The notes beneath the pieces are model-generated. The model made no database searches. It was not told where the DNA came from and was given only the letters and a program-made list of their open reading frames with translations. 64,000 bases of DNA from Macrostomum hystrix (Eukaryota; Animalia; Platyhelminthes): assembly GCA_950097015.1 (NCBI GenBank), contig CATNEN010000001.1:6076001-6140000 (forward strand). The letters are read 5' to 3'. How positions within the stretch are numbered: the first letter of the stretch is position 1; each line of letters starts with the position of its first letter. Shown in pieces: positions 14,291-39,155 of this stretch. The translations under genes were made by a program, and so were the position numbers.

Positions 14291-14291
14291 C

Positions 14292-16330
14292 ATGACCCAA
14301 GACCTTCTAGAAGACGAAGCTCTGGCTGACAATCGCACCGTGGGCTTCATCTTGGAGCAGCTGAAGCTCAGCATGGAGCCGTCATACAAAAGGAAGTACT
14401 CACAGCAGCTCATGGTGTTTGCTTACCTGCTGTATTCCACTAGTGCTGCGGCATATAAGACAATGCTGGAGCAGGACGCACTCTGCCTTCCATCCGATCG
14501 GACACTACGGTCCATCACAGCCAAAGTTGGCTCCAAGGAAGGTTTGGACAATGAAAGCTACCTGAAGTTAAGAGCATCCAAGCTGTCACAGATGGAGAAG
14601 ATTGTGACCCTAATGATCGATGAGATCTACATCGCCAGTCGGACTGAGTACAACAACGGCCAACTGACTGGACTGGACGAAGATGGTGCCGTTGCGTCAA
14701 CACTCTGCTGCTTCATGGTGAGATCCGTGGCTGGACCATACAAGGACATGGTGGCGATGCATGCGGTGGCAACATTGACGGCGAAGAAACTGTCAGAGTG
14801 GTTTCATCAGGCCATGGATGTCTTGAGAAGGCTGGCCTTCACCGTTGTTGCAGTCTGCGTTGACAACGCCGCTGTGAACCGCAAGTTCGTGAAGGGGCTG
14901 TGTGTGGCAGCAGCTTCAATCCATTCTTCGTCGACGAAGTGACCGGCCAGCCAGTGTTTGTGCTGTTCGACCCAGTGCACAATTTGAAAAACATCTATAA
15001 TAATTTTCGAACTCGAGAATTCTTCAGCTTCCCCACAACTCCACTTCTGCCTCATGCATCCGAAGCCCGCTTTGAGCACATCATTCAGCTATACCAACTG
15101 GAAGCCTCGAGACCTCTAAAGTTCGCGCATAAGCTGAATCCAGCAGTGCTGAATCCGAAGAGCGTCGAGAGGACATCTGTCAAGCTGGCAGTTGCCGTCT
15201 TCAATGAAGCTACTCGTGATGCGCTTGTCTATTACTCAGAGTGGAGAGGCAAGGCCTGGGAGGCCACTGCGGACTTAATCAGTCTCGTGGTGAAGCTGTG
15301 GCACATCCTGAATGTGAAGGCACCTTCCAAAGGAAAACGAAAGCGGGACATCAGTCAGGACCCTGTTCGCTCCTCGTTGGATTGGAAGCTGCAATTCCTT
15401 CGCGAGTTTGCCGACTTCCTAGACAAGCCTCAGGATTGCCCGGCTTGTCCAAGGAAACATTTCTGGCTTGTCGGGTGACCTGCCGCGCACTGGCTGCCTG
15501 CGCAGCGCACTTGCTGGATCGTGAAGGCTTCAATTACGTTCTCCTAGGTGCTCTGCAGTCGGACAGCATTGAGCGACGATTTGGATGGCTCCGCCAAATG
15601 TCTGGAGCGAACTACTACATTTCTGCGCGCCAGGTCAAGGAGAACAGCAGGAAGATTGCAGCAGTTAGCTTGCTAAAGTACTCAAAGTTCTCCATGAAGG
15701 AGATTGACAGCGCCATTGATGAGCCCAGTGACTGCAGTCTTACCAAGGAGCTTGTGAGCCGTCTGGCCAGTAGGCTGGAGATGGACTGCGAACCCAGGTC
15801 GGACGATCACATTGTCATCTACTACGTCACTGCTGCAGTTTCTCGGAAGTTTGTGCAGCGTCGAGCGTGTGAGCCGTGCAAGGAGCTGCTGCTGGAGCCA
15901 GAAGCTGCATCGCCACTGGAAGTTGACTGGGTTCCACCGCAAGCATCTTCATTCATCGAACAAATCAACCGCGGCGGCCTTTGCCAGCCGACTGAGCTTG
16001 CCTTTGCGCTGACTACTCACTGCTGGAGGATCTTCGAGGAGATTCGGCAAAAGGAGCCACTGCGTAAGGAATTCTTGTGCGCCCAACAGCAGCTGCAAGT
16101 CTTCTGTGGGCTCGTTGATGAGACGGCTGACGATACCCAGTATCTGGAGTCTTTCGCCCAGTTGACCACTTGCACGAGGGGACACGACGTCAAGACTGGG
16201 ATTTCGAAGGCGTTCTTTAATTGCATGATGAGCAACTTGGTCAAGGACATTTCCAACAGTGAGCGCGGAGGAAAGCGAAAGATTGCCAAACTTTCCAGCC
16301 AGTCTACTGCCAGCAGCAAAAAATTTACGA
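14292..16330 (+). pseudogene. P-element/THAP9-like transposase, frameshifted, N-terminus missing
   Basis: Three overlapping ORFs carry the motifs in order: LPSDRTLR, LMIDEIYI, VCVDNAAVN, LFDPVHNLKN, QSDSIERRFGWLRQMSGANY. Frameshifts near 14905 and 15430. No THAP domain or TIRs identified. Confidence 0.85.
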
Positions 16331-17186
16331 GTGCTACTATCGTTCTGCCATTCAATATGCTGCGTTTTGCCAAGTTTTTCATTTACGCATCTGTTTCCTC
16401 TTCTATTTTGGTGAGTTATTTTGAACAGACTACCCTGGACTCTCATTCGGCATCCGCGAGTATCAGCATTGAGTCTCACAAGCTGCATTTGATTCGAGTA
16501 ATGGCTATGCTTTTTATAAATATTCGAATGAAGAACCTGGCTAAGGATCTTTCACGCGCTGGAAGAAAACCCGGCAAGAGGCAAAGGCTGCTTCGAACAG
16601 CGATTTTTCTTAATTTGTAATCAGCGTATTCGCATATGGAGCCTGGTAAGTTATGGCTTCAATGCATTCTGTTTAAGCTTATTCCCGTGATAAACTATAT
16701 ATTTGCCATTAAATGCGTGCAAAAAATTCTAGATAAATTAAAAATGAATCTGTAGTTGTTAATTTGTTAATCTTATTTCTTACTGAGTCTGAATTTTCAC
16801 TAGTTACGAACATAAAGAAAAAAGAGACCCCGACAAGCTGAGTTGGCTGAGGGTAAGAATTGGAAAGGCCCGGCCACAATTATCGATCGTGGGGAAGTGG
16901 GCACTGGGGGTGCCACTTTTCCTACTAGGAAAAAGGCACAACTTTTTTTACCCTCATGCGCAGTCTAGTTATATTTCTTGGTCTGTGGTCACATGGTTTT
17001 TCTGTAGTGAACTTCCTGACAACACCGTGGGAAATGGTCTGCTCCTCTCTTCTAAAAAATCGATCGCCTTTCCTTATTTCCCCAATCTTCAAGCATGCTG
17101 TCTTCCGTGCTGCCAATGTACGTATAGTTTGGCAATGTACGTACAAATGTACATTCAAACTGAGCACGAGTTAACTTCTATAAAAG

Positions 17187-18062
17187 TATAGCGCTTCAAG
17201 TTTTGTCGTCTCTCTCGTGTCAATGTAGTCTAGCGGTCTGTTGCAGTCTCTTGTCTTGAAGGCTATACTTCCTAACGACTATCGTTCTCAGTATTAAGGC
17301 TGATCGATCTCTCGGATTCCTCTCTCTGAAGTCAATGAAGATAGAACTCAAACACAGTAAGTTTCTATTGAATTGCTAGCGTAATAGAACGTAGAGATGA
17401 CTCTCTAACAAAAATCAGCGGCGGACCTTTTTCCCGCGCTCCGCTTCGATTTATATATTGTTTGAAAATCACTCACTTGGGAGGGTGATACAACTTTATC
17501 AATCAGAGCGCTTGGTGATAATGGGTCGAGTGGGGTCGCAGCCCCGATTCCAAATCAGCACAAAACATTAGAATACTTGGTTGGCAGGCACGCCAACCCC
17601 TGTCCTATGGAGGGCGGGTCAAAGGCCTAAAAGTGTTAGTTGAGTTAGAAGATTGCCCGTTTCTATGGAATCCCCTTTATCTAGTGTTTGTTTGTCACTG
17701 TCCCTCCGTCGCTCCAGGTCTTCTTGGGCGGTCCCGGCCTCTTCCAGGTCTCATCTCCAGATAGGGCTCAGGCAGGCTCCGATGTTGTAGGCATGGCCGG
17801 GCCAGGTCGCGTCAGGCCGTGCCAGGTCGGGTGAGTCCGGTCGGGTCCATGTCACGTTGGACCTACGTCGGGCAGGATCGGGTCAGATTAGGCCGGGCCG
17901 TGTCATATCGGACCATACCAGGTTGAGTTGGACCGGGCCGTGTTGCGCTGAAATGCAAGTGAAAACTCGGGGCGAGTATTTATCTAATCTATCTATTCTT
18001 AGTTGCTTGACCTCTAGGCGAAAGTTTTCTCTCGAGTTCTTTTCAGATTTCTAAGTCTTATA
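17187..18062 (-). repeat. 3' LTR (876 bp), termini TATA...TATA
   Basis: Matches 28214-29089 with no differences noticed by eye. The identical 65-aa ORF is called in both copies (17857 and 28884). Confidence 0.96.
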
Positions 18063-18075
18063 TCATCCCCCTTTT
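18063..18075 (-). promoter_or_regulatory. Polypurine tract (AAAAGGGGGATGA)
   Basis: Purine run immediately upstream of the 3' LTR on the minus strand. Confidence 0.88.
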
Positions 18076-18743
18076 GATGAAATCCTTGACTAGTCAAGGG
18101 AGATGCAGCCTATTTTCTTACTCCCGTTGCTAATCTGTCTACTGCTAGTAGGTTTGAGAACATATAAGACGTTGAAATCTGAAATTATATTATATATTAT
18201 TATTATTGTATAATTGTTGTATTATTGTATAATATTGTATATTGCGTATTGTAATAATGTGTTTTTTTTCTTTTTTCTTAATTAGAACATTAATTTAAAT
18301 GAAAAATTCGTCATTCTGTGGCGGATCAGGGTTCTCCTGCCAATAATGTTGGCGCATTGATTCAGTCGTCGAACGTGTAGGGATAAGCCGAATTGTCAAG
18401 TGCTTATCTGTGTATAATAAAACAATGTGTGTATAATAAAACAATACGTGCTGGATCATGGAATTTGGTAGAGCCTTGCCTTTGTACTTCTTCGTTATTC
18501 TAAGCTTAGATTCAATTTGAGTGACGGGCCTGGCTTCCCCTAGTTCACTGGTCTGATGCTTCAGGTAGCGAGGCGCTTTCCCAAAGTTCTTTCCGTGAAA
18601 CTGGTTCTAGCCTCAGGATTGCACCTGAGTGAGAGTGTCACAATGATAGGACTTCCGGTCGAGACGACCCATCTGTCTTAACATTGTGTCAGTGTCTCAG
18701 CTCTCGTGTCTCCTTATGCCCTTACATTCACGTCCCTACATTC

Positions 18744-19508
18744 TTACTGACAAGTAGGCTCTTGCGAGGCTTCCAGTGCCGCCTTTAGCCGTGGCCACTG
18801 TAGCAACGCCGGCGAATACGTTCGAACTACTAGCATCTTCATTTCGCGGCAACTACTTTGAATTCCATGATAAACCAACGCATTGGACAAGTAATTAAAT
18901 AACTTAGTACATATCACATTAGGTTGCGGGCCCCAAGGGTGGATCAGGTTGACGGATAGCGTACGGCAGAGTGCCTTAATTATGACGCAAGTAAAGGCGT
19001 CTTGTTCTCCATAGTGAAAGAAAATTGTTGTACGGTTACGTAGAATGTTATAGTCAGAGAGGAGCCAGATGGGGTTATTGTCTTCAGCCAGGATGCGCTT
19101 TGTGGTCAGATGTGTTACTACGTTAGCTGGGATTCGTGGCGCATCCAGCATGTCCAGGTGAATGTCAAATAGTTTCATCTCACCGTGCCGATTAGGCTTG
19201 CTCTGGATGGGCTGTCTATCCATGAAGTCGTACAGCTCCGTAAATGATAGGTCTTTTTCTTCCCGTCTGTGTCTCTCTCTCAGCACTGTTGGGCACTGCG
19301 GCAGACCGTCTCTGGATCTTCTGATCTCCCATTGGGCTTGGAGATGTCGCCGTTGCTGTTCCGTGGCGGCGCTGTTCCTAATGTTCATCTCCTTCCCGAC
19401 TGCCGTGCTTAGTCCTGCCGATGGAAACAGTGGCTTGACCAGTGTGTAGGTCGTAAGCGGCTCATCGATGGTGCAATCATCCACTGTGTCTAGCTCCGTC
19501 GAATACAT
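18744..19508 (-). CDS. Accessory ORF of the LTR element, unknown function (~254 aa from ATG 19508)
   Basis: Open frame 18744..19613 between pol and the 3' LTR. The first ATG (MYSTELD...) is directly preceded by CAG. No signal peptide or TM segment is visible. Confidence 0.6.
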   Translation of the reverse strand: MYSTELDTVDDCTIDEPLTTYTLVKPLFPSAGLSTAVGKEMNIRNSAATEQQRRHLQAQWEIRRSRDGLPQCPTVLRERHRREEKDLSFTELYDFMDRQPIQSKPNRHGEMKLFDIHLDMLDAPRIPANVVTHLTTKRILAEDNNPIWLLSDYNILRNRTTIFFHYGEQDAFTCVIIKALCRTLSVNLIHPWGPQPNVICTKLFNYLSNALVYHGIQSSCREMKMLVVRTYSPALLQWPRLKAALEASQEPTCQ

Positions 19509-19675
19509 CTGATCATCCGAAGGGTGGGTTAAATATTTGTGAGTGGTTGAATAGTGACTACTTATAAGTAATGTAAAATATTCTATTCTAAAAATCAGAG
19601 TGCACACCAACAAAATAATGAAAATTAAAAATGTAAAATTGTCCGTCTACTTCCTCCCTTCCTTGGCATCAATTG

Positions 19676-22600
19676 TCAAGGAAGTTTCACTTTGCTCCTC
19701 AGGTTATACTTCTTCCGAGCGCTGTCAGCTTGCGCATCCAGCTCTTCTGCCTGCACGCTCACTTCCTTGGTGAATCGTTGTCTGGGCTGTCGCTGGTGTC
19801 GCTGTGGGTCGCTCGGTCTGAGGTCAGGAAGCATCACATGTGGTGTAGGCGTGGCCATTGGTTTCAGCCTGTCCGTGTGCACTTGAAAAGACTCCTGATT
19901 TGGATCATCGATTTTCCGAATTGTGACTGAGGTTTGGCTATTTCTCTTCATAATCTCATAGGGTCCTGTAAATTTTGCTTGGTGCTTTCCTTGTCTCATA
20001 GGAATCTGCAGCATAACTCTACTGCCTACTTCCAATGTAGTCAATTTGCGATTAGTATTGGCTATTCCGGTATTCTTCTCTTGAGCTATCTGTAGGTGAT
20101 GTCTCGCTATTTCTCTGGCTAGTGTTACAGCTTCTTTCATTCTAGATGCGAATGATGGCTCATCCATGTACTTTACCAAGTTCAACTGAGTAGTGAGTTG
20201 AGTAGGCATCAGAGGTCGTCGGGCGAAGACTAACTCGAATGGAGAGTAGGTTGATGATGCTTGCTTTGCCGTATTGTATGCGAACATCGTTGCTTGCAGG
20301 TACTTATGCCACTGGTCCGGATTCTCGGCTGTGTAGTGGCGTAGCATATTGTGCAGTGTGGAATGTAGCCGTTCTACCTGATTTGCTCGAGGATTATATG
20401 GGGATGTCAGAATATGTTTAATCCCCAATATCTCTAAAGCTTCGGCTAGTAGAGTTGCGGTAAAGTTCTTTCCATTGTCCGTGGACATCTCTATCGGGAT
20501 CCCAAAAGTACAAAACACTGTGAATAGTGTCTCTGCCGTCGTTTCCGCTGTGAGATCTGGGATCGGAATGGCGAATGCGAATTTCGAAAAACAACAAAGG
20601 ATTGTGAGTATGTGTGTTACCGTTTCATTCCTCACTTTAGTAGGCACCATTGGACCCACTATGTCGACTGACAATTTGTCCATTGGTCGCATTGGGATCT
20701 CCGAGAACTGAATCAGTCCCTTATGAGTTTTTCCTGATTTATTCCTGGCGCACTCTATGCAATTGTTGCAGAATCCTCGGATGTCGGATACCATGGTAAT
20801 CCAGAAGTAGTGTCTGCGGATTCTCTCTAAAGTTTTCTCAAATCCCAAATGTGCTGCTAATGGCAATGCGTGTAGTGAGTGGCAAATGGTCTCACGATAT
20901 TGAAACGGTAGAATGATCTGTTGTGTCTGATCTGCCGTTCGGTGTAGTACTCCTCCAATCTCCGCGTAGTCGGCCAGGTGTCTATCGATGTGGCGTCTGT
21001 ACTTCGAGGCCAGTGATTCCACTGCCGCTTCTCCGTTCCACGTTGCTCGGATGTGCTGGCAGAATGGGTCTTCCGCCTGGGCGTCCTTGAGTGCTTGCAG
21101 GTGTGGGATTGGGTGCGATATTGTAACGTAGTTGATTTGGTCCGTTGGTTTCTCATCGTATAATCTTGAGAGTGCGTCAGGTACGGCATGTGTGACTGAT
21201 GCTCCAGGTACATATTCGATCTGTATCTGAAACTGCTGTAGGTATAGTAACCATCTCAAAATTTGGTTGTTCTGCAGTATTCTGCCGGTGAGTAAGCCTC
21301 TGAGTGGAGCGTGGTCTACTCTCAGTAACGTGGGTATGGGAGCAGCGTATAAGAACTGTTCAAAGTTTCTGAATGCATGGTAGACTGCTAAAAGTTCGAG
21401 ATGAGTGATTCCGTACCTCGTTTCTGCATCTCTCAGTTGTCTGCTCGTGAACGCTATCGGTCTCTCCCGTCCCATCTCGTCTTTCTGCGAGAGCATCGCT
21501 CCTATGCCCTTGGTGGAGGCGTCACTCGAGACTATGAATTGTTTGTTGAAATCCGGGTGTGCTAGCCTGAGATCCTCGGCTATCCATTTCTTCATTGCCT
21601 CGAAAGTGTAGTTCGCTTCCTCGGTCCACTTTAAGTTGGTCTTCGTTGCCTGTCCTTTCGAGGTCGGTGCCCCTTTGAGCATATCCGTTAGCGGTTGTAC
21701 TTTCTTAGCATAATGTGGGACATGTTTCCTGAAAAAATTACACAATCCGAGGAATGCTCTTAACTGAGTCACATTGTCGGGCTTGGATACCTTTTGTACT
21801 TTGTCCACTAGAGTGCGGTCTATCTGGATGCCGTTCTGGTCGATCTTGTGTCCCAGGAAGGTAATGCTGGGTTGCGCAAATCGACATTTCTGGAGTTTCA
21901 GCTTTAATCCGTGCTTTTTCAAGGCTTCCAGAGTACTTTTGAGTGTCTTGAGGTGGTGCTCAAAGGTTTCCGTGAATACTAGCAAATCGTCCACATATGT
22001 AGAGACTCTCTCGATGCCTTTGAGGATGATGCTGGCAGCTCTAGACAAGGCCGCCGGGCTCGATTGTAATCCCATCGGTGCCCGTAGGAAGACTAGGGTT
22101 TCTCCATCCGGTGTAGAAATCCCGCAGTACTTCCTGCTGTCCTCATGCAGGGCCACTTGGAAGAATGCCTGGGCCATGTCTAGAGTCGTGAAGTATTTTG
22201 ATCCTTTGAGTTGAGCCAGCAGATCTGGAATCCTGGGCATGCACTGTCTCTCGGGGATCAACAATCGGTTCAGGTCCCTGAAGTCCACACACAGGCGATA
22301 CACTGGTTTAGCCTCCGGTGACTCCGATTTTTTCTTGACGAGGAGAATTGGTGAAATATACGGTGTCGGTGCTTTCATGAGAATCCCTTGCCTCTCCATT
22401 CTGTCTATCACCTTCTTCAGTTCTCCTGTCAGTTGGTGTGGAATAGGATATCTCTTGTTCAGCTTCACCTCCACATTCGGTTTTATGTGGAGTTCGTGTT
22501 TTGCTACTTCTGTAAATCCTATCTCGTCATCTGAGAGACAAAATGCTTCCTTGTTTTCCCAGAGGATTTCTCTTAGTTGTTCTTTCTGTTCCGCTGTTAT

Positions 22601-25600
22601 CTCAGCTCCCTGCAGATTAATCGCCTCTCTGAATTCTGTCTCTGTCATTGTCGGTGCCTGTTCCTGATTTGCGGCTATTTCATATGTCTCTATTTCTGTC
22701 TCATACGAACCTATGGCTGTATCTGGATACAGAGTGATTGGTCTGGCTGATTCGTTGGATATGAGAACTTGTACTTCTCCCTTCTCGTCCGGATGAACTA
22801 TCTCCTGAGTCATTCCTATCGCCTTCTTCTCGATGATACGCGTATCTGGCTCGAAAAGTACAGTGTCAGGCAGTTCCTCCTTTGAGTCGGTTCTGGCTGT
22901 GATTTGAGCTGTTTCCCATGGATTCAGGTTTACCACGCAGACTAATCTGATCTTATTTGTGGCTTCCTGGGCAGTTACTGTCATGATTTCATACGATCTG
23001 CCATTCAACTGTATCTGTTGCTGTTGGTAATTAATAGACATACCCTTCTGCAACTGACTTAAGTAATCAATTCCTAATAGTGCATGGTATCTCCCCGAAC
23101 TCAAATTCGGAATGACATGAAACTTAACGTTGACGATTGTGTCTCCTGCTTCGACTGGTAGAGTGATCATTCCGGATTGCGTGAGCTTTCCTCCGTGTAC
23201 TCCTTGCAGCTCAGTCGTCGGCTTTTCGAAGCTGTCACTGTAGCGGCGTGCCGTTGCTTCATCTATCAGTGATTTCTCTGCTCCACTGTCGATCAGCGCT
23301 CTGCAGGTTCGCACGCCGATCTTCAATCGCGTCACCGTGTATTTCTGGCTATTCGTGATTGCTGCCACTATCGGCGGTGGCCAGGCGCTAATCGTCGGGT
23401 AGATTGATGAAGCTGGAGGAGCTGACGGCATCATCGGCTGACTCTGTTCCGCGCTTGTAGCCGGTGCCGTTGGTGCTGGGCGCCGCGGGCCCGTGTGTCT
23501 GTGGCTGGTGCCTGTGCTGTGTTGTCCCCGCAATTCGTGTCGTTCTTGTGTTGCCTTTATCCGTCTTTGGATTGCTCGGATGCCTGGTCGCTCGTATTTT
23601 TTCCGGAGGAGCCTGTGACAAACTATTATAGTTTTGAGTATGATGTACACATATACACAGATTGCGGCAAATCCAACTGTTATGTTGAAAATATTGAGTT
23701 TTATACCTATCCATGGCGTCCAAGATGCGAAGTCATAAGTTTTAAGAGCTATGTTTGCCTCCAATGGTGGGAGGTCGATCGTTTCTGGATTCTTCTGCTT
23801 TGGTAGTTTGAATACTGTTCTCAGAAATTCTCTCTGATCCCTCATCTGCGTGTACAGATCGTGTACCGTAATCGGGCTTCGGATGTCTTCTATTTTGATA
23901 TCTGTTTCTGGTATAAAAAGAATTCGTTTGATCTTCGGTAATTTCATAGGCTCTATTCCCCAATCTTCGCTCTTCAATTTCCTTATCTGTATAGGTTCGA
24001 AGTTGGTGAAATTTAAATCGGCCTTGTACACTCTGTCCTCTTTGGGTAGAAGGTACCCAGTTTGATTCGAACATTCCTGAAAGGTGGGGTATTCTGTCTC
24101 AATTTCCATAGTTCTTACATTCAAGAATCCTGTACGGTTGGTCTCCGCTACTTTGTACTTCAACGGAGGCTTGGAGAAACATCGGCTTTGATTCCAGTGT
24201 GGTTGATGGAATTCAAAGTCAGTCACTGGGATGCATTTGAAGATTTCGACATGCTGAGCTATCGTTCTGGCCTTGAGATGCTCGTCTTTGAACAGTGTCC
24301 TCACTGCTAGTGTTGGTTGCATTCGTATGAAATCCTTGATGTATCTGAAAATGTTCTGTTGGATTCGGCATTGCTGAAGGATCACATGACGGGTCAGATC
24401 TCCAATTCGATTTTCCATCGTAAGTTCAATGCTCTGTAATTTCGCTGCTAAAGTTTCTTGTGATACTAGATCCCTCTTCTCTCTCTTTGCTGTGCTAGAG
24501 TTGTTAAAATTGCCTTGTACTATTAATAGGAATTCTGCTTCGGATCCTTCTGGCCTGACCAGCTTTCCTTGTTCTGACCTGAATAGTTTAGTTGTCGTTC
24601 CTCCGCATTTCAGTTCCATTGAGTGTGGCGGGTGCTTAAAAGTCAAGGCGTAGGTTGCATCCTTGGCCATGAACCATCCCGTGTGGATAGTTCCTTCTAT
24701 ACGCCTGTCTTCCTGGTACGGGCAGTCAATTGCAGCGCTGGGTGTCCAGATATATCTGTACTGGCGTTCTCCAGCGACCTTGAATGTTGTGTCGTAGAAT
24801 CGCAGAGCTTCCCATAGTTTGTTGGGTACTTGTCTCTCTAACGGCGCATCCTTCTCGACCTTTAAAGTGGATTCGTGAGAGCATTTTCCAATTGTGTAAT
24901 TACAATGACCTAGTGGGATGTACAGTGATGACATCTTCTTATTCTCCACGAAGAACGGAATTTTCGTTATCAGCGTGGATGCTGACTTTGTGTATCTGGT
25001 TTGGGTGCTAGCCGTTGGTTCGAATTCCTCTACTGTCCAGATATGAGTAGTAAAGCGTTCCGCTTTGTTCGGAGCTTTCCCGTCTTCCTGAAGGGTGCCA
25101 TCTGGGGTTTGGTATCCTTCCTTCCAGGACTCACACTCTTCCTCTGTGACCGGATGTTTCTGCACCGTAACAGTCATTTTTGGTCTTACCACTTTGGCTA
25201 TAATCGTTGTTAGTGCCACACTGGTGAAAACATACGTTTCTCGATAGCAGATCTTGAGTGTTGATCGGTGAGTGACCTGATTTGGTTTGAAGATTGTCAG
25301 GTTGATCGGCTGTCGGTGCTGCTGTATGCTGCTAGGCATCTTGCACTCGATATCCGGTGGCAGCTTGAAGATCTGTGGCCTGGTGGGCTCCGGGCAGTAC
25401 ATCGGTGTGTCCACCCATTGTTGGTGTCCTTGGCTTATCGTTTCCGCCGTGGTACAGAGCCATGCGAAGAGTAGAATTTTCAGCAGAAGTGCGCATGTCG
25501 GTCCTACCGGTGCCTTCCAGTGATTGCTAGTCTGTCTAGCCCTCTGCTCTCGCTTTCGTCCTTCGAGCTGTGGAGCGGTTTGAACTAGGGCCACTGTCGC

Positions 25601-27001
25601 CGTCTTGTTCTTCCTGTTCTGTCGCCTTGCCTGTATGACGTCGCTTTTCGCCCTTGTCAGTGTTGTCGCTTCCGACGTGCTGACTGCCAAGATGTGTGCA
25701 GCCTGGCTGGGCTGATTCTCCAATTCGGCTGGCTTCGGACTGGGGTCCTGAGTTGTGACCTCTGCGATCCGCTTTGGCTGTCGCCACTGCTGCTGACGCC
25801 GTTCTTGATAACTCCGGCGTGATCGGGTGCATTCCGACGTCCAATGGTTGTTCATGTCGCAGTTCTGGCAGTATCGCTGACCTCTGCAATCCTTTGCGAA
25901 GTGACCTTTCTTTCCACATTTGTAGCAATTGATATTACCTCTATCTTGCCTTCCCTGCGGTTTTACTTGGCCCCCGGTATTCTTACCGGTGTCCATGTTC
26001 CTTTGGTAGCACCTGTTGGCAGTGTGGCCTATCTTGTTACAGATCTGGCATGTCGGTCTCGGATTGTCGTCTGGGTACTTAGTTCTTGCTTCTTTCTGTG
26101 GCTGTGGGCCTCGGTCCTGGTTGCGCTGATCCGCTTTCTTGATTGTAGTCTCCATCTGAGCTACGATGGCTGTCAGCTTGTGTATGTCGTTGGACTCCTG
26201 TTCGAGCTCTCGCAGTGCTTGCCATTGAAGCGCCTCACGCACCATCTCCGGGACCGTCTGGTAACGTCCTCTGGCTAGATATAGTCGTAATGCCGGTGTA
26301 GCATTCTGTTGCACGTGTAGCATGATGTGGTCCTGGATGATGCGCTTGTTGCGGTTGATTCTAGCGCCTCTGTCATGGTCGTTCTCGCCTTCCGGAGCTG
26401 GTTCTTGGAACACTGAGTTCTCAACCAGTTGTGTGATGTCGGCTATAAACTTGTTGACGTCCTCTCCTGGGTGCATCTTCCTCATGGAGAGTTGTAGTAC
26501 CGCCGTAGGTCGGTCTATCGCTCTGGTGTCATACAGCTGTCGGAGTTGTGTTCGTACCTGTCCATAGTCTTCTCGGACGGCTTGTGGGAGTCCCGCGTAT
26601 TGATTACGTGCGTTAGGGCGCAGCATGAGTGGTAGCAGGCGGCATTTTTCTCCATCTGTTAGGCCATATGTCGCTGTCTGCAGTTCAAATTCGGTTAGCC
26701 ATTTGATGAATGGCTGTCCCATTTCGTAGTCTCCTGCCGATAGCTTGAGAGCTTGGACAATGGCTGGTAGGTCCCTGCCGTGTGCCATGGCTAGACGTTG
26801 CTGTAATTCGCGGACTTGGTTCTGGAGATCATCCATTGCGTTGTCCTCGTTGTCCGAGTCTGATGAATGCTCGTGGTTGTCGTCGTCGTGCTCTAACTGG
26901 TTTCCTGGCTGCTGTTGCAGTTGTTGCTGTTCAGGTTCTCCCGGTTCTGGAGTTCTGTTAGTGCCTGTTTGAATTTCTTGGTCAAGAGTTCCGTTATTCA
27001 T
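19676..27001 (-). CDS. Gag-Env-Pol polyprotein: Gag with 3 CCHC knuckles, internal signal peptide, class III (gB-like) glycoprotein, TM, aspartic protease, RT, RNase H, integrase
   Basis: The ORF track starts at TTG 27046; the first ATG is at 27001. Motifs in order: CQICNKIGHTANRC, CYKCGKKGHFAKDC, CQNCDMNNHWTSEC; CALLLKILLFAWLC; KREKR; TM IFNITVGFAAICVYVYIILKTIIV; LIDSGA; YVDD; SDAS...LELLA; HHCC; SVDIVGP / STDNG / QVER; TGPY. Confidence 0.96.
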   Translation of the reverse strand: MNNGTLDQEIQTGTNRTPEPGEPEQQQLQQQPGNQLEHDDDNHEHSSDSDNEDNAMDDLQNQVRELQQRLAMAHGRDLPAIVQALKLSAGDYEMGQPFIKWLTEFELQTATYGLTDGEKCRLLPLMLRPNARNQYAGLPQAVREDYGQVRTQLRQLYDTRAIDRPTAVLQLSMRKMHPGEDVNKFIADITQLVENSVFQEPAPEGENDHDRGARINRNKRIIQDHIMLHVQQNATPALRLYLARGRYQTVPEMVREALQWQALRELEQESNDIHKLTAIVAQMETTIKKADQRNQDRGPQPQKEARTKYPDDNPRPTCQICNKIGHTANRCYQRNMDTGKNTGGQVKPQGRQDRGNINCYKCGKKGHFAKDCRGQRYCQNCDMNNHWTSECTRSRRSYQERRQQQWRQPKRIAEVTTQDPSPKPAELENQPSQAAHILAVSTSEATTLTRAKSDVIQARRQNRKNKTATVALVQTAPQLEGRKREQRARQTSNHWKAPVGPTCALLLKILLFAWLCTTAETISQGHQQWVDTPMYCPEPTRPQIFKLPPDIECKMPSSIQQHRQPINLTIFKPNQVTHRSTLKICYRETYVFTSVALTTIIAKVVRPKMTVTVQKHPVTEEECESWKEGYQTPDGTLQEDGKAPNKAERFTTHIWTVEEFEPTASTQTRYTKSASTLITKIPFFVENKKMSSLYIPLGHCNYTIGKCSHESTLKVEKDAPLERQVPNKLWEALRFYDTTFKVAGERQYRYIWTPSAAIDCPYQEDRRIEGTIHTGWFMAKDATYALTFKHPPHSMELKCGGTTTKLFRSEQGKLVRPEGSEAEFLLIVQGNFNNSSTAKREKRDLVSQETLAAKLQSIELTMENRIGDLTRHVILQQCRIQQNIFRYIKDFIRMQPTLAVRTLFKDEHLKARTIAQHVEIFKCIPVTDFEFHQPHWNQSRCFSKPPLKYKVAETNRTGFLNVRTMEIETEYPTFQECSNQTGYLLPKEDRVYKADLNFTNFEPIQIRKLKSEDWGIEPMKLPKIKRILFIPETDIKIEDIRSPITVHDLYTQMRDQREFLRTVFKLPKQKNPETIDLPPLEANIALKTYDFASWTPWIGIKLNIFNITVGFAAICVYVYIILKTIIVCHRLLRKKYERPGIRAIQRRIKATQERHELRGQHSTGTSHRHTGPRRPAPTAPATSAEQSQPMMPSAPPASSIYPTISAWPPPIVAAITNSQKYTVTRLKIGVRTCRALIDSGAEKSLIDEATARRYSDSFEKPTTELQGVHGGKLTQSGMITLPVEAGDTIVNVKFHVIPNLSSGRYHALLGIDYLSQLQKGMSINYQQQQIQLNGRSYEIMTVTAQEATNKIRLVCVVNLNPWETAQITARTDSKEELPDTVLFEPDTRIIEKKAIGMTQEIVHPDEKGEVQVLISNESARPITLYPDTAIGSYETEIETYEIAANQEQAPTMTETEFREAINLQGAEITAEQKEQLREILWENKEAFCLSDDEIGFTEVAKHELHIKPNVEVKLNKRYPIPHQLTGELKKVIDRMERQGILMKAPTPYISPILLVKKKSESPEAKPVYRLCVDFRDLNRLLIPERQCMPRIPDLLAQLKGSKYFTTLDMAQAFFQVALHEDSRKYCGISTPDGETLVFLRAPMGLQSSPAALSRAASIILKGIERVSTYVDDLLVFTETFEHHLKTLKSTLEALKKHGLKLKLQKCRFAQPSITFLGHKIDQNGIQIDRTLVDKVQKVSKPDNVTQLRAFLGLCNFFRKHVPHYAKKVQPLTDMLKGAPTSKGQATKTNLKWTEEANYTFEAMKKWIAEDLRLAHPDFNKQFIVSSDASTKGIGAMLSQKDEMGRERPIAFTSRQLRDAETRYGITHLELLAVYHAFRNFEQFLYAAPIPTLLRVDHAPLRGLLTGRILQNNQILRWLLYLQQFQIQIEYVPGASVTHAVPDALSRLYDEKPTDQINYVTISHPIPHLQALKDAQAEDPFCQHIRATWNGEAAVESLASKYRRHIDRHLADYAEIGGVLHRTADQTQQIILPFQYRETICHSLHALPLAAHLGFEKTLERIRRHYFWITMVSDIRGFCNNCIECARNKSGKTHKGLIQFSEIPMRPMDKLSVDIVGPMVPTKVRNETVTHILTILCCFSKFAFAIPIPDLTAETTAETLFTVFCTFGIPIEMSTDNGKNFTATLLAEALEILGIKHILTSPYNPRANQVERLHSTLHNMLRHYTAENPDQWHKYLQATMFAYNTAKQASSTYSPFELVFARRPLMPTQLTTQLNLVKYMDEPSFASRMKEAVTLAREIARHHLQIAQEKNTGIANTNRKLTTLEVGSRVMLQIPMRQGKHQAKFTGPYEIMKRNSQTSVTIRKIDDPNQESFQVHTDRLKPMATPTPHVMLPDLRPSDPQRHQRQPRQRFTKEVSVQAEELDAQADSARKKYNLRSKVKLP
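23615..25495 (-). other. env: Envelope glycoprotein domain (class III fusogen, herpes gB/chuvirus-like) within the polyprotein
   Basis: Signal-like hydrophobic segment at aa ~518-533 (numbered from 27046), Cys-rich ectodomain with at least 7 N-x-S/T sites, furin site KREKR (aa 854-858), gB domain III/IV-like core, TM at aa ~1119-1143. Confidence 0.88.
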
Positions 27002-28198
27002 ATGCTGGTATTCAGGTCTATTGGTTCTTTGCGGAGTTGGCCGCAAATGATATGAATGTAAGTGATGCGTATTTAATCAGCTTGACTTCAGCAAAGTATC
27101 CTGTCAGTGTGTGCTCTGATCTATCTAAGATCTCACAAAATTTTAAGTGAAATTCAAATATGAGAAAAGGGGTAGAGGTATCGGATACGTTTCCGGCCAG
27201 GTGGTGCTGTCAATATGTAAAAATTTTTGTTGCCTTAGACAAATAAATAAGTGCATTTTTGTCGCGCTTATCGTGAGTGTGCGCTCGGCTAAATAATATG
27301 GTTGCAGCATTTTATACTCATGCACTTTTAATGATTAAGCATTTTAATTTTCCGCTTTCGGCCTTATCGGCTAGTTGGGCTACGCATTTCACTTTATTCA
27401 GAAATGCCTCGAGGTTGTCTCGTGGACTGGCTACCTAGGTTGGGGACACAAATACTTACCCTAACACGCTGTGTAGCAGATCTTCAGCGCTATGGGCGGG
27501 CTGCCGCGTTTGCTGGAGAGTTGAGTCAGATAGACGCAATGTATAGTGCCTAAGTGAGTTCTTCCCCCCTCTGTGTCCGCTCAGTCCCTCGTGCCAAGAG
27601 TATAACTCTCCTCAGAAGGTCTGCTATCCTACTGAGCCTATTGAAGCGCGCTATAACAATAAAAAGCCCTTTCCGGTGTACTTTTAATGCTGCAAATCAC
27701 TTGACAGGTCCTTTACCTGTGTTGAGTCGGCCGGCTCCTACAAAGGCTTCTTTTAAAGCCTAAGTTTTGATATGTGGTAATGCTGGTCAGCGCTGCCTGA
27801 ATTCTTTAACTGAGTACACCATATATAATAAATCGACTATAGTCCTATGTTTTAAACAACTTCCTGGTAGCCCCTCGCTATTGATGCGGCTTTGGTGAGT
27901 TGCTTCACCAATTGCTAAATATTTCTCTTCTAAGGAAAATCATACCGTAGCTTTGTACATAACTATTCTACTTTTTTTGTTTGTTTTTAGAATTTTATCA
28001 CATTTTTTTGAACTTTTTCAATAAGAAACGCACATGTCCTTTTACGACACGATGTAATTTACTTAGTAGAGAAACATTTGTGTGACAGCACTCATCCTGG
28101 CCTTCCGCGTTCCTTCCTCCACCGTCGGAAATTACTCAGCCATTACTGGTCGATGTCGTCAGGTTGAAAAGTGTAGACTGCTTGCTAGATGACTCGTA

Positions 28199-28211
28199 GG
28201 TCAGGGAACCA
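28199..28211 (-). promoter_or_regulatory. Primer-binding site complementary to the 3' end of tRNA-Glu
   Basis: The minus strand reads CG-TGGTTCCCTGACC just after the 5' LTR. The plus-strand GGTCAGGGAACCA equals the 3' end of metazoan tRNA-Glu(CTC). Confidence 0.85.
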
Positions 28212-28213
28212 CG

Positions 28214-29089
28214 TATAGCGCTTCAAGTTTTGTCGTCTCTCTCGTGTCAATGTAGTCTAGCGGTCTGTTGCAGTCTCTTGTCTTGAAGGCTATACTTCCT
28301 AACGACTATCGTTCTCAGTATTAAGGCTGATCGATCTCTCGGATTCCTCTCTCTGAAGTCAATGAAGATAGAACTCAAACACAGTAAGTTTCTATTGAAT
28401 TGCTAGCGTAATAGAACGTAGAGATGACTCTCTAACAAAAATCAGCGGCGGACCTTTTTCCCGCGCTCCGCTTCGATTTATATATTGTTTGAAAATCACT
28501 CACTTGGGAGGGTGATACAACTTTATCAATCAGAGCGCTTGGTGATAATGGGTCGAGTGGGGTCGCAGCCCCGATTCCAAATCAGCACAAAACATTAGAA
28601 TACTTGGTTGGCAGGCACGCCAACCCCTGTCCTATGGAGGGCGGGTCAAAGGCCTAAAAGTGTTAGTTGAGTTAGAAGATTGCCCGTTTCTATGGAATCC
28701 CCTTTATCTAGTGTTTGTTTGTCACTGTCCCTCCGTCGCTCCAGGTCTTCTTGGGCGGTCCCGGCCTCTTCCAGGTCTCATCTCCAGATAGGGCTCAGGC
28801 AGGCTCCGATGTTGTAGGCATGGCCGGGCCAGGTCGCGTCAGGCCGTGCCAGGTCGGGTGAGTCCGGTCGGGTCCATGTCACGTTGGACCTACGTCGGGC
28901 AGGATCGGGTCAGATTAGGCCGGGCCGTGTCATATCGGACCATACCAGGTTGAGTTGGACCGGGCCGTGTTGCGCTGAAATGCAAGTGAAAACTCGGGGC
29001 GAGTATTTATCTAATCTATCTATTCTTAGTTGCTTGACCTCTAGGCGAAAGTTTTCTCTCGAGTTCTTTTCAGATTTCTAAGTCTTATA
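28214..29089 (-). repeat. 5' LTR (876 bp)
   Basis: Direct repeat of 17187-18062, flanked by the PBS and the TSD AAAAG. Confidence 0.96.
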
Positions 29090-29337
29090 AAAAGGAGATA
29101 AAATGTGATCCTCGAAGAGAACCATAGCCATATGCAACTAAACTCAAATTAGAGTTTTGAACTTCATGGGAACCAGACGACACAGCAGCAACACAGTTGC
29201 ACTGTTTCTACGGTTGAACCGTAATACGGACCTTGCGTTTGTAAGTAATTTTTGCTAAAAATTAAAGGCCAATCTAATATTTTTTCACTCACTCTAAAAA
29301 CATTACTGATAAATCTAAGAATCCGCAATAAAAAATT

Positions 29338-31278
29338 ATGGAATTGGAACAGGAGGATCACTCAAACTACGAGGACAACTCAATCTCGTATATTGGTACA
29401 ACTTTAGTGCGATCTACTAGCTACATTATCTTATCATGGGAAAAGCTACCACCTGACTGGCGATCGGAGGACATATCAATCTCGTATATTGGTACAACTT
29501 TAGTGCGATCTACTAGCTACATTATCATATCATGGGAAAAGCTACCACCTGACAGGCGATCGGAGGACAACTCAAACTCGTGTATTGATACAAATTTAGC
29601 GCGATCTACTAGCTACATTATCTTATCATGGGAAAAGCTACCACCTGACTGGCGATTGGAGGACAACTCAAACTCGTGTATTGATACAAATTTAGCGCGA
29701 TCTACTAGCTACATTATCTTATCATGGGAAAAGCTAGCACCTGACTGGCGATCGGAGGACATATCAATCTCGTATATTGGTACAACTTTAGTGCGATCTA
29801 CTAGCTACATAATCTTATCATGGGAAAAGCTACCACCTGACTGGCGATCGGAGGACATATCAATCTCGTATATTGGTACAACTTTAGTGCGATCTACTAG
29901 CTACATTATCTTATCATGGGAAAAGCTACCACCTGACTGGCGATCGGAGGACATATCAATCTCGTATATTGGTACAAATTTAGCGCGATCTACTAGCTAT
30001 ATTATCTTATCATGGGAAAAGCTACCACCTGACTGGCGATCGGAGGACATATCAATCTCGTATATTGGTACAACTTTAGTGCGATCTACTAGCTACATTA
30101 TCTTATCATGGGAAAAGCTACCACCTGACTGGCGATCGGAGGACAACTCAAACTCGTGTATTGATACAACTTTAGCGCGATCTACTAGCTACATTATCTT
30201 ATCATGGGAAAAGCTACCACCTGACAGGCGATCGGAGGACAACTCAAACTCGTATATTGGTACAAATTTAGCGCGCTCTACTAGCATCGAATATCTGTCC
30301 TCGTATCATCCGTGCGATCATCCTGACAGCACAGTCACAACCTGTTCTGTACAACCGAAGGCAGAGCAAAACCTGGTGGAAGACATCGTTCTGCTGATCA
30401 GAGTAAAGTCCAAAAATCGTCTAAATGAACTACTGGACTGTTTCAAACAAAGAGGCATCAAACCTCTTTGTTTAGTAGCCACGCAAGAAGCACATGATGA
30501 GCTTTGTAGGTACAGTAGAAGTAATGGCTTCTCCTTGACGGTACTGAAGATCAGCGCTTTGACCTCCGAGTTCAGCTGGGACCATCCAACTATTCGTGAA
30601 CTGCTTCTTCACTGGCGGTCCCGGTTAAACAACGATACGGCTGTTGAAGTGCCCGAGCTCCTGCAATCGCTATGTGAGAACGAACAGGTCAAGTATCTGT
30701 TGCCTGACGATTTTTTTCTAGAAGATGATGAAAGTGACCTCAAATCAGTAAGCTCGAGGTGGCCTTTTTTTAATAGTGGTGCTAGCTGTCAGGAATTCAA
30801 AGTGGAAGAAATTTCTAAGCACCTCCCGAACGAATCAAACGACTATGAGTATAAAATTAATAATGGCGACCACGAGTCAGGTCCAGTAGTAATTTTAGAT
30901 GGATCTAACCTCCTTGCTGCGAAGGCCGGCGGCGTTGTGTTGACGCTAGCCGTTGAGTTAATCAAAAATAGAAATCCTGATGCCCACATTTTAACTGTCT
31001 TTAAGAAGACTCAGTTTAACGACCGTAATAACGACTTCCTAACCAAAGCTGGGTTTAAGGATATCAAAGGATCGTATGACAGCCTTGAATCCACTAGCAA
31101 CGTAGCTGACGATGACTTGGAATCACAGCGTCTGGCTATCCAGTTCAATGCAGCCTTGATTTCAAATGACCGCTTCAAGCAGAAAGAATATAACGAATTT
31201 AGGCCAAAGTTTGCTCCATTGCTGTACGAATACTTTGTCTATGGTGGTAGACTTTTCCTTCTGACACAAAAATCGTGA
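29338..31278 (+). CDS. Intronless protein with ~8 N-terminal 39-aa repeats and a C-terminal Zc3h12a/Regnase-like NYN (PIN-fold) RNase domain
   Basis: PVVILDGSNL...LAVELIK...ILTVF...DDDLESQRLA...LISNDRFKQ matches the VIDGSN / DD / SND catalytic pattern of Regnase and N4BP1 NYN domains. Confidence 0.78.
   Translation: MELEQEDHSNYEDNSISYIGTTLVRSTSYIILSWEKLPPDWRSEDISISYIGTTLVRSTSYIIISWEKLPPDRRSEDNSNSCIDTNLARSTSYIILSWEKLPPDWRLEDNSNSCIDTNLARSTSYIILSWEKLAPDWRSEDISISYIGTTLVRSTSYIILSWEKLPPDWRSEDISISYIGTTLVRSTSYIILSWEKLPPDWRSEDISISYIGTNLARSTSYIILSWEKLPPDWRSEDISISYIGTTLVRSTSYIILSWEKLPPDWRSEDNSNSCIDTTLARSTSYIILSWEKLPPDRRSEDNSNSYIGTNLARSTSIEYLSSYHPCDHPDSTVTTCSVQPKAEQNLVEDIVLLIRVKSKNRLNELLDCFKQRGIKPLCLVATQEAHDELCRYSRSNGFSLTVLKISALTSEFSWDHPTIRELLLHWRSRLNNDTAVEVPELLQSLCENEQVKYLLPDDFFLEDDESDLKSVSSRWPFFNSGASCQEFKVEEISKHLPNESNDYEYKINNGDHESGPVVILDGSNLLAAKAGGVVLTLAVELIKNRNPDAHILTVFKKTQFNDRNNDFLTKAGFKDIKGSYDSLESTSNVADDDLESQRLAIQFNAALISNDRFKQKEYNEFRPKFAPLLYEYFVYGGRLFLLTQKS
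29371..30285 (+). repeat. 117-bp in-frame tandem repeat (~8 copies)
   Basis: The unit EDISISYIGTTLVRSTSYIILSWEKLPPDWRS is repeated with minor variants. Confidence 0.95.
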
Positions 31279-33052: not shown

Positions 33053-33120
33053 TCTCCTTAGAGTGAGAAATAATATTGTTTAGTCTGTCAACAATCGCTT
33101 CCATTTTTACCCCCCTAAGA

Positions 33121-36100
33121 GAGCATCCTCCCAGGCAAAACCGTCTTAATCGCCTCGGTTTATTTACCGGGCGACAGGCCGGCAGTCCCTGAGGAGCTGA
33201 TCTCTCTGACTGAAACCTGCGCTACCAAAAACTATGAGCTCATGGTGGCTGGCGATATAAACGCCCACCACACCCACTGGGGGAGCTCTGACATTAACTC
33301 GAGAGGCGAGGACCTCCTTGCCTACATCCTAACCACGCCTCTGGAGTTCTGCAACACAGGGAGCACCCCGACATTTGACAATGGACGATGGTCTGAGGTC
33401 ATCGACGCCACTCTAGCCACACCTGGGCTCTACCAGAGCCTTAGGGAGTGGCAGGTTCTGCCGGAGACCTCCCTCTCCGATCACAAATACATCTCTTTCC
33501 AACTGGCGGGTGCACGCTGCACTAACCAGATCACTTGGAAAAGGAACGCTAGGAATACCGATTGGGAAGCCTTCAGGTATAGCCTCGAAGGAACCCAACG
33601 GAACCTCAGCCCCCCCGCCAACACCTGCGATGAAGCGGATGAGCTAGCTGAGTTTCTCACCAACTCGCTGACCACCGCCTTCGAGGCCTCCTGCCCCCTC
33701 AAAGCTTACAGAGGCAAAACTTCGGCCCCATGGTGGAATCCGCAGCTCGGCGAGCTCCGTCGAACGGCGAAGCGGCTGCACCGCAGGGCCACGAAGACAA
33801 AAAACCCGGCTGATCAGGCTGCGTATCTCGAAGCCATCCATAGCTTCAAGAAGGAAGTCAGAAACGCCAAAAACAGCAAGTGGCGGCAATACTGTGAGGA
33901 GCTTGAGGGCACTCGCCCCACCTCCAGAATTGTCAAAGCCCTCACGCTGGACAAAATGTCCAAGCTTTCGACGGTGAGGAAGGCCGATGGCCGACCCACC
34001 GAGAACCCTGGGGAAACGCTCGACACTATGCTCACAGCCTTTTTCCCCAGCGTGCCAGCAGGGACAGACCCCCCGGATCACACCGAGGGAGGTCATATCC
34101 TTGCGACGTCCATCATTACTGAAGACCGGGTTACCAAGGCAGCCCAGTCTTTCAAACCCTTCAAATCCCCGGGGCCGGACGGCATTATACCAGCCTTCAT
34201 CCGCGAGGCGGTAAAATGCCATGGCTTCCTCACTAATCTTTGCAAGCTCCTTAAGGCTTGCATTGTGCTTGGGTATGTTCCGAAGGCATGGACCGAGGCG
34301 AGGGTGGTTTTTATCCCCAAGCCAGGCCGCCCGGACTACCATTCCATTAAATCGTTTCGGCCAATTAGCCTAACCTCCACCATGGTCAAACTGATGGAGA
34401 GATTGGTGCTCTGGCGCCTCCTCTCTGTGGAGCTGAAAAATATGCCACTAAGCGGCAATCAACACGCCTTTCGGTCGGGACGTTCCACCGAAAGCGCTCT
34501 CCACGCTCTGGTGGACGCTCTGGAAAAGGCCGTCCTCGGGAACGGCTTTGCCCTGAGCATCTTCCTGGATATTGACGGGGCCTTCGACAACGTTCTCTTC
34601 GAGGCGTTTGACAGGGCCCTACGTATGCGGCACACGCATTCGCATCTTAGGAGGTGGATCATGTACATGGTCCGCCACCGCACTGCTACGGCACACCTTC
34701 TTGGACACCAGCGGACGGTCACTGTCTGCAAAGGTTGCCCACAAGGCGGCGTCCTCTCACCAGTTCTCTGGAACATGGTTATCGACGAGCTCTTACGAGA
34801 CTCTCAGCCAGACCCCATCCTAAAGGTCGGCTATGCGGATGATGTTACGGCAGTGGCATCTGGCCCGGTACTAGAGGCCCTCCGAGACCTTCTGCAAAAC
34901 TCTATCAACAACGCCGAAAGATGGGCAACTCGCCGCGGTCTGAAGCTCTCCGAGTCTAAGACAGCGGCGATCATGTTCACCAGCAAAAACAAATGGCATA
35001 TTCGCCCCCTGCAGCTGTATGGAAAGGACATCACCTTCCAGAAGCAAACTAAATGCCTGGGCATAACGCTCGATCACAGGCTCAGCTGGACTCTTCATGT
35101 CCATGCCAAAGCCAAAAAGGCCTTTGCGATCCTGGCGCAGCTGCGCAGGGCGGTGGGCAACACGTGGGGTCTCACCCCCAAACGCCTATGGTGGATCTAC
35201 ACTGCTATGGTCAGGCCGGCTGTCTCGTACGCCGGACTGATCTGGGCTAGTGCCCTGCAGCTTAAGACCTGCCATGAGACTCTTCGGAGAGTGCAAGGTC
35301 GCGCATGTCGAACGATCATGAGCGCCCCGCCATCCGCCCCCTTCGATGGCCTCAACGCCTTCTTGAACATCCTCCCGCTCGATATCTTTATCCGCGGGGA
35401 GGCGGCAAAAACCGCCCGGCGTCTCCTTGATGCCGGTGTGCGCTTCGTCCCCCAACGAGCGGCAGCGAAGCGAAAGCTCCTGCCGCACACGGACCTTTGC
35501 CTGAGAGACTTGGGTGCGAGCAACGGAATCAATGTCCTTACGGACGGTGAACCGTGCTCGCTCAACCTCCTTCAGCGCTTTAAGGTTCTCATCCCCACCA
35601 GGGACCAAGTTAGCGACCACTGGAACACCCAGGAGGTCCACTGCTACACGGACGGATCCATGAAGGATGGCTCCGCTGGCTTCGGGGTCTGTATCCTTAT
35701 CAACGGACGTGTTGTCGCCACACACGCCCAACACACTGGAAAATCCTCGAGCGTTTTCCAGAACGAGGTCCTGGCCATCAGCTCCTGCGCTGCGGAGTTG
35801 AATGAGAAAAACATCTCAGGCAGGACTATCATCTTTCACTCGGACAGTCAGGCTGCTCTGCAAGCCCTCTGTCACACCACCACAACCTCCCGGACAGTCT
35901 CCGACTGTGTCCGGCAGCTCAATAACCTGGCCGGTAAGAATACCGTCAGACTTCAGTGGATACCAGGGCACGCCGGTTTCCCTGGTAACGAGCTTGCTGA
36001 CCACCTGGCCAAGCAGGGAGGAGCCAGCTCTGCGCCGGGCCCCTCCCCCCGGCTCCGATTCCGAGCACCGTCATTTATCGTCAGATTAATGATTGGACTG

Positions 36101-38900: not shown

Positions 38901-39155
38901 CTTAGCGAACCATTTCTGAGTTCTTCGGCTTGATTTCGGTTTGTGTCGATGAAGTTCACTGTCTTCACAAACTAGTAACTAGATTTTAGCTATGGCCAGG
39001 ATATTGCTGTTCCGCATAAACGCACAGCCAATTCTTTCAGTGCATCCGGGACACCGCGGTTTGCACGCACGGTGCATGTAAGCAGGGTCTCTCAACTGTC
39101 TCATCTCTCTCCTGTCTCATCTCTTAAATTTCTTATCTCTCTTCTGTCTCATCTC

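Follow-up and report, generated by a model that had tools for sequence, protein, structure and literature searches.

What is encoded by a stop-free frame of 7.3 kb in the flatworm Macrostomum hystrix, in which an env region appears to lie between gag and pol, and how could its single product be turned into working parts? The frame is located in a stretch of 64,000 nucleotides (assembly GCA_950097015.1, contig CATNEN010000001.1, positions 6,076,001 to 6,140,000 of the forward strand), here called the window, whose positions are used throughout. A previous interpretation made from the letters only (the sequence-only reading) had assigned the frame to a Gypsy-type element whose env is joined in frame to gag on one side and to pol on the other. 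Family matches, a predicted fold and database relatives support this assignment, and the locus almost certainly holds a Ty3/gypsy provirus of the GAG-ENV-POL kind, 11.9 kb in length. Sequence features and the fold model make it quite probable that the provirus is intact and that its product would be threaded twice through the membrane of the endoplasmic reticulum (ER) and cut into parts.

The provirus and its polyprotein

The polyprotein is encoded on the minus strand by one open reading frame (ORF) of 2441 amino acids (aa), with an ATG at 27001 and a stop at 19676. The stop-to-stop frame around it has 2466 codons, and a plus-strand reading was ruled out by 101 stops. Residues are counted from the ATG at 27001. 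The stop-free ORF of the sequence-only reading was borne out on this strand; its 2456 aa begin at 27046, 15 codons upstream of the ATG, its residue numbers are higher by 15, and all the landmarks that it named (CCHC knuckles, signal, KREKR region, transmembrane helix, DSG, YVDD) are present at that offset. The features are given below in the direction of the minus strand, with LTR for long terminal repeat, PR for protease, RT for reverse transcriptase, RH for RNase H and IN for integrase.

29090..29094, no strand: target-site duplication, right copy, 5 bp
28214..29089, minus: 5' LTR, 876 bp, TATA-box-like motif at 28484, same as the 3' LTR
28199..28211, minus: primer-binding site, starts TGG, 2 nt inside the LTR, from sequence
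28146..28147, minus: putative splice donor, exon end 28147, intron GT from 28146, from one X9 contig
19676..27001, minus: polyprotein ORF Gag-Env-PR-RT-RH-IN, 2441 aa, one frame
25496..27001, minus: Gag, aa 1-502, three CCHC knuckles
25445..25495, minus: predicted internal signal sequence, aa 503-519, basic stretch upstream, from hydropathy
23690..25444, minus: Env ectodomain, class III (gB/nyamivirus G-like), aa 520-1104, from Pfam and predicted fold
24473-24484, minus: furin-type REKR, aa 840-843
23618..23689, minus: predicted transmembrane stop-transfer helix, aa ~1105-1128, from hydropathy
23045..23335, minus: aspartyl protease, aa 1223-1319, DSG at D1238, Pfam RVP
21842..22336, minus: reverse transcriptase core, aa 1556-1720, YVDD, Pfam RVT_1 E 2e-27
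21230..21628, minus: RNase H, aa 1792-1924, Pfam RT_RNaseH
19859..20905, minus: integrase, aa 2033-2381, HHCC, DDE core, weak p58 C-terminal match, from Pfam
18744..19508, minus: accessory ORF2, 254 aa, AG directly before the ATG as putative splice acceptor
18063..18075, minus: polypurine tract, adjoins the 3' LTR
17187..18062, minus: 3' LTR, 876 bp
17182..17186, no strand: target-site duplication, left copy, 5 bp

The LTR pair (17187-18062 and 28214-29089) is identical over 876 bp and is flanked by a perfect 5-bp target-site duplication. The LTR boundary was set at 17187, which gives the 5-bp duplication and symmetric ends, in preference to 17186, where the duplication would have 4 bp. Because the LTRs are identical, the copy was likely inserted recently; it is young and intact, in agreement with the sequence-only reading, which had taken it for an element with matching LTRs and not for a decayed chimera. 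LTRs, primer-binding site, polypurine tract and a target duplication within the 4-6 bp of Ty3/gypsy elements are all present, and pol has the order PR-RT-RH-IN by Pfam. The termini are TATA...TATA rather than TG...CA. The primer-binding site presumably resembles the end of tRNA-Glu, and no tRNA gene was found in the 64-kb window for comparison with it. Its 12-mer had no match in the primer-binding-site table of PMC13524379, as far as that table was accessible.

Pfam domains follow each other in the order zf-CCHC (358-373), viral fusion glycoprotein PF24664 (848-984), protease (1223-1319), RT (1556-1720), RNase H (1792-1924) and integrase (2033-2204). A motif script placed CCHC knuckles at aa 318, 359 and 378, the protease aspartate at D1238 and YVDD at 1669. 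Gag is without the N-terminal Gly needed for myristoylation.

By Pfam and predicted fold, the insert between Gag and protease is a class III fusogen, like herpesvirus gB and nyamivirus G, and its family is clear. PF24664 matches with E 3e-8, above the Pfam cut-off. In the ESM Atlas a 627-aa segment was placed with glycoprotein clusters of Monjiviricetes and rhabdoviruses at 0.96, with a recognition value below the tool's reference level. The fold was modeled from an alignment of the query with 53 of the 64 relatives described below and reached a predicted local distance difference test (pLDDT) of 78 and a predicted template modeling score of 0.52. A Foldseek search with the model against the PDB gave 112 matches at E <=0.001, the best with herpesvirus gB (E 1.5e-20); G proteins of nyamiviruses, rhabdo-like and chu-like viruses also match, the best being Nyavirus G (E 3.5e-25). 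The fusogen fold expected by the sequence-only reading was found in this way, with low template modeling (TM) scores.

In an 11-residue hydropathy scan only two segments exceeded the threshold, namely the signal and the transmembrane helix, and signal cleavage is predicted after A519 by the (-3,-1) rule, applied by eye. The 11 relatives selected for display have a similar hydrophobic segment at the corresponding position, and most of the displayed rows contain a dibasic motif of the furin type. Across the 583 aa of the ectodomain there are 8 sequons for N-glycosylation, a density of 1.4 per 100 aa compared with 0-0.9 in the six other regions. Its 12 Cys residues are each kept in no fewer than 26 of the 28 relatives aligned. 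The helix is followed by 9 K/R in 20 aa. Here, at low TM-scores, a class III ectodomain with conserved Cys lies between a signal and a transmembrane segment, an arrangement shared with gB-type errantiviruses.

Relatives and independent contigs

A word-index search with the Env region scored 0 of 2767 candidates; by exhaustive comparison, 64 relatives, mostly fragments, were then obtained at E <=0.001. The best match is PAA86625.1 (P0086), a protein of 2852 aa from Macrostomum lignano, which is colinear with the element from end to end at identities of 24% in Gag (E 9e-22), ~30% in Env, 36% in RT and 35% in integrase. The domain order that the sequence-only reading had described recurs in related sequences: Gag-Env-PR-RT-RH-IN was found in this protein and also in P0118 (Globodera rostochiensis), P0123 and P0007, and Env-PR-RT-RH-IN in P0022 (Ancylostoma duodenale) and P0119. 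The Pfam scan of relatives covered 20 of the 64 Env matches and 3 of the 84 pol matches. By motif, CCHC precedes Env in 18 of the 64 and a protease motif follows it in 12 (both in 7); RT or integrase follows Env in 6 and precedes it in none. One cluster of relatives includes a bryozoan protein. Among the Env relatives, P0122, P0123 and P0111 have the aspartyl-protease domain duplicated or in several copies, and in P0122 some of these copies precede Env.

The RT/RNase H tree was calculated with FastTree from 88 rows, without labeled outgroups; six rows were dropped (2 near-duplicates and 4 short matches). The element joins the M. lignano element with a Shimodaira-Hasegawa-like support of 96, on long branches, and does not group with the nematode proteins P0118 or P0022. 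From this grouping a flatworm host would be judged moderately probable; the RhoGAP gene of the window gave no close named match. The label env-before-pol, carried by 8 rows, requires 5 changes on the tree, of which at least 3 are forced. The named proteins among the 84 pol matches are mostly gypsy-type pol or have uninformative names.

Contigs from four of 20 listed runs (X1, X2, X9 and X14) were compared with positions 16700-27900. In eight runs of organism A, from two studies, 91-95% of the words sampled are present. X1 covers 29 and X2 all 30 of the 30 bins, and 72 of the 113 contigs in the former and 82 of the 150 in the latter are at least 99% alike; contigs identical to the element run across the transmembrane helix into the cytosolic tail. 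A sister subfamily, ~86-91% alike, is seen in gag, env and pol, and X14 (organism C) holds a relative of the element across all 30 bins. Among the 40 variant sites listed (1394 lie beyond these), 27 fall in the ORF; 17 of the 27 are synonymous, as are 3 of the 4 in env.

Some observations on single regions were made in the same contigs. Loose contig ends in X1 and X2 carry other flanks at the same LTR ends; therefore, further insertion sites exist. One X14 contig skips 789 nt in env (23878-24668), a multiple of three, and possibly comes from an internally deleted copy. The ORF2 region (18524-19500) forms long unbranched contigs in X1 and X2, and two subfamilies are seen in gag, env and pol. 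Recombination may have given both almost the same ORF2 region; depth is no copy number.

Proposed processing, probable splicing and alternative explanations

Hydropathy and charge support the two-pass topology that the sequence-only reading had found self-consistent. The first four steps of the following scheme, up to the furin cut, are judged probable from the sequence. Synthesis of Gag would be cytosolic; the signal (aa 503-519) would then direct Env into the ER. Signal peptidase cleaves on the luminal side, after the signal. Because of this, Gag would stay anchored in the membrane and a second cut would be needed; the sequence-only reading had Gag set free in the cytosol by signal peptidase, which is corrected here. 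With a luminal cut near A519, Gag would keep the signal as a C-terminal membrane anchor, which would replace the absent myristoyl anchor and is comparable to the anchored capsid of flaviviruses. The helix at ~1105-1128 would halt transfer and leave PR-RT-RH-IN in the cytosol, tied to the Env tail, and furin would cut Env at REKR. Membrane-tied Gag, Env and Pol could then co-assemble and bud, after which the protease of the element would free Gag and the enzymes. A spliced RNA from 28147 to 19508 would remove the polyprotein and express ORF2, a likely regulator. The chance that enveloped particles pass between cells is put, from the sequence, at somewhat better than even.

The splice is suggested by X9 contig 24, in which the end of the LTR (record 10-28) is joined, at record 95, to the first letter of the ORF2 start codon (19508). 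The gap of 66 letters between the two equals the distance from 28212 to 28147; GT follows the donor and AG precedes 19508. No ATG occurs in the first exon, which measures 334 nt up to the donor if counted from the TATA-like box. Such an RNA would probably yield ORF2. Neither ORF2 nor its likely splice figures in the sequence-only reading. Retroviruses and errantiviruses express env through a leader-to-downstream-gene splice of this type, and here the pattern likely serves a gene other than env. In the leader (27002-28212, 1.2 kb), 3 nt ahead of the Gag ATG, there is an AG that may be a second splice acceptor. The unspliced leader also holds 13 upstream ATGs, so that translation of the polyprotein may depend on a splice or on internal entry, and equal (1:1:1) amounts of its parts are not assured. 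That ratio and the packaging of Pol via the Env tail are predictions of the sequence-only reading.

For ORF2, no Pfam match was obtained at E 0.1, and the best hit of ORF2 against PDB sequences (E 0.55) is at chance level. The best ESM Atlas value, 0.89, is below threshold and leans toward Peptidase_C48 (Ulp1/SENP), a lead only; no Ulp1 triad was established in ORF2, and its single-sequence model has a pLDDT of 33. The only metagenome locus obtained for ORF2 (L001) was rejected as a relative, being a chance match in a bacterial-looking contig.

Several points weigh against the reading of the locus as an intact provirus with a twice-threaded product and a spliced ORF2. The element is known here from its sequence and predicted fold, with the topology taken from hydropathy and charge. 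Foldseek TM-scores are at most 0.36, with root mean square deviations of at least 18 A, so that the arrangement of domains in the model is unreliable; a hydrophobic tip is present at the first fusion-loop hairpin and not at the second. The basic stretch after the helix has only 2-3 K/R in 8 of 9 displayed relatives. P0149 has a BEL/Pao-type domain ahead of Env, in P0041 an unverified Env-profile match lies behind RT, and each named relative is a gene model, which may itself be a product of splicing. Evidence for the ORF2 splice comes from the two ends of one contig of depth 9.7, on either side of its middle 66 letters. X9 is RNA by guess and bears an organism label (B) different from that of the main holders, with pieces 95-100% alike. 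Among the contigs listed (454 further pieces exist), none spans the whole element or the Gag/Env junction.

This last point, together with a G+C content of Env below that of Gag (0.45 compared with 0.53), would suit a misassembly, or an isolated, decaying chimera in which a gypsy element has captured a viral gene. The 7.3-kb open frame and the target duplication around two identical LTRs speak against such an origin, as do the matching contigs of two studies, a diverged sister subfamily and the organism C relative, which extends across gag, env and pol. The same order is kept in proteins only 30% identical, and the colinear M. lignano polyprotein refutes the explanation, which is rated as highly improbable; the sequence-only reading had named a misassembly as one of the findings that would overturn it.

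A different view accepts the same element and topology without free infectious particles, Env being an ER or membrane scaffold, or a cell-to-cell fusogen that moves capsids, e.g., from soma to germ line or between stem cells. In the accessible text of PMC13524379 the transmission route of most env-bearing elements is not known and inheritance is mostly vertical, and no relative of Env was found in a viral contig collection by a single-protein pattern search, a weak search. The conserved Cys frame and the furin-type site fit a working fusogen, yet they do not separate this view from transmission by particles. A near-identical element under a second organism label (X9) points the other way and may be a matter of transfer or of labeling. 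Existence without free particles is considered possible and somewhat doubtful. It is also conceivable, and rated as unlikely, that the single ORF is a genomic layout only, from which alternative splicing or early termination makes Gag, Gag-Env or Gag-Pol messages in a ratio other than 1:1:1. The element likely splices from its leader, the leader holds the upstream ATGs and the AG before the Gag ATG mentioned above, and retroelements usually need an excess of Gag. On the other hand, a joint that leads from gag past env to pol is absent from the 13 listed; of the four runs compared, three are either DNA or of unknown type, and absence cannot be proven by contigs. The intact provirus with a polyprotein probably cut at the ER membrane is the reading retained here.

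Further features lie elsewhere in the window. At 29338-31278 (plus strand), 250 bp outside the 5' LTR, lies a 646-aa ORF with 9.5 in-frame 96-bp repeats and C-terminal DGSN and SNDRF motifs, which we take to recall NYN/Regnase-type PIN nucleases, a match that Pfam does not give. A non-LTR retrotransposon ORF of 1026 aa, open and with endonuclease, RT and RNase H, is found at 33119-36199 (plus). Positions 14241-15478 (plus) hold a P-element/THAP9-like transposase in two overlapping frames, and 61881-62426 (plus) a fragment of a Tc1-type DDE transposase. An ARHGAP40/18-like RhoGAP gene with long exons, its best relative 28% identical, is located at 55190-57981 (minus). The fragment at 59437-60388 (minus) has a weak QRICH1 match and presumably recalls Crypton-type tyrosine recombinases. 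Large tandem arrays occupy 1-7870 (21 bp), 39154-44172 (26 bp), 46007-47694 (21 bp) and 49588-50705 (19 bp period).

Comparison with known systems

The sequence-only reading knew of no described element with a gag-env-pol architecture. This was not borne out, since such elements are published (PMC6431247, and PMC13524379 in its accessible text), and the layout is no discovery, having been in print since 2019. Burro/GYPSM1 of planarians was reported as 'the first case': one polyprotein with three CCHC knuckles and env in frame between gag and pol (PMC6431247). Its env matches mononegavirus fusion glycoproteins, and accessory ORFs are present (PMC6431247). Like Burro, the element has a single ORF in which gag is followed in frame by env and then by pol. 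Burro measures 25-30 kb, with an ORF of ~4900-5100 aa and the cargo domains MATH, BIR, BCL2, SUMO-like and ankyrin (PMC6431247), compared with 11.9 kb and 2441 aa here; none of these cargo domains had a Pfam match in the polyprotein. The identification of the element as Burro was rejected on size and cargo, the likeness being one of layout. Between protease and RT (23011-22502), ~170 aa of the element are without a Pfam match; Burro has a dUTPase-like domain at this place (PMC6431247).

The closest described group is that of the gB-type Ty3/gypsy elements with the order GAG-ENV-POL from Nematoda, Bryozoa and Platyhelminthes, polyphyletic in pol (Chary & Hayashi, eLife, PMC13524379, cited throughout from its accessible text). 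The table of that paper lists 10 bryozoan, 9 flatworm and ~36 nematode elements of this kind out of 1512, one of them from M. lignano. The present element has the gag-env-pol gene order of the group and shares with it Ty3/gypsy pol, a gB-type Env between gag and pol, and polyphyletic occurrence (PMC13524379). The LTR of Mlig_errantivirus_2 is 863 bp long (PMC13524379) and that of the element 876 bp. The nearest database protein, PAA86625.1, is only 24-36% identical, and a link to the catalogued Mlig_errantivirus_2 could not be made (PMC13524379). No match to an element motif or an M. lignano label was found in the accessible supplementary file 2 of PMC13524379, the figures and sequence repository of which may list closer relatives. 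The same paper calls the transmission route elusive. In its accessible text and that of its bioRxiv version no mention of one shared frame, splicing or processing was found. A literature search, with most subscription journals outside its coverage, found no paper that fully covers signal-peptidase processing of such polyproteins, and the accessible texts examined hold no description of such processing or splice.

Nematode endogenous retroviruses with a flipped order of env and pol were described by Sacco et al. (2022, J Gen Virol), as cited in the accessible text of PMC13524379. In the RT tree the named nematode proteins are P0118 and P0022, with which the element does not group. A nyamivirus G protein is the best viral fold match of the present Env. 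In the nematode elements, reportedly, gag, env, pro and pol form one continuous ORF, the Env is nyamivirus-like and small additional ORFs are present. The polyprotein of flaviviruses and hepaciviruses has its capsid ahead of an internal signal that serves the envelope protein. These are unrelated viruses with class II fusogens, and the likeness is an analogy of mechanism only. For ORF2, a precedent by layout only is found in Cer1, a gypsy element of C. elegans, where the novel protein CERV is made from a spliced mRNA and is needed for export of unspliced RNA (PMC10309623, accessible text).

A broader reading is possible and, when its three parts are taken jointly, rather unlikely. The element would represent a distinct cargo-free lineage that buds in a flavivirus-like manner, the signal peptide of Env keeping Gag at the membrane and its tail doing so for Pol; the place behind pol from which env is classically expressed by splicing would have passed to ORF2, as a CERV/Rev-like or SUMO-protease-like host modulator; and the integrase would act on TATA rather than TG/CA ends. 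The element is a new, divergent, compact and cargo-free example of the described GAG-ENV-POL kind. In this copy, which is compact, young and without cargo domains, the signal, the furin site and the anchor stand out clearly. The probable splice to ORF2 and the TATA termini add a little to the published picture of the group, and the value of the locus lies in these two features and in a compact case for the question of how such polyproteins are processed and packaged.

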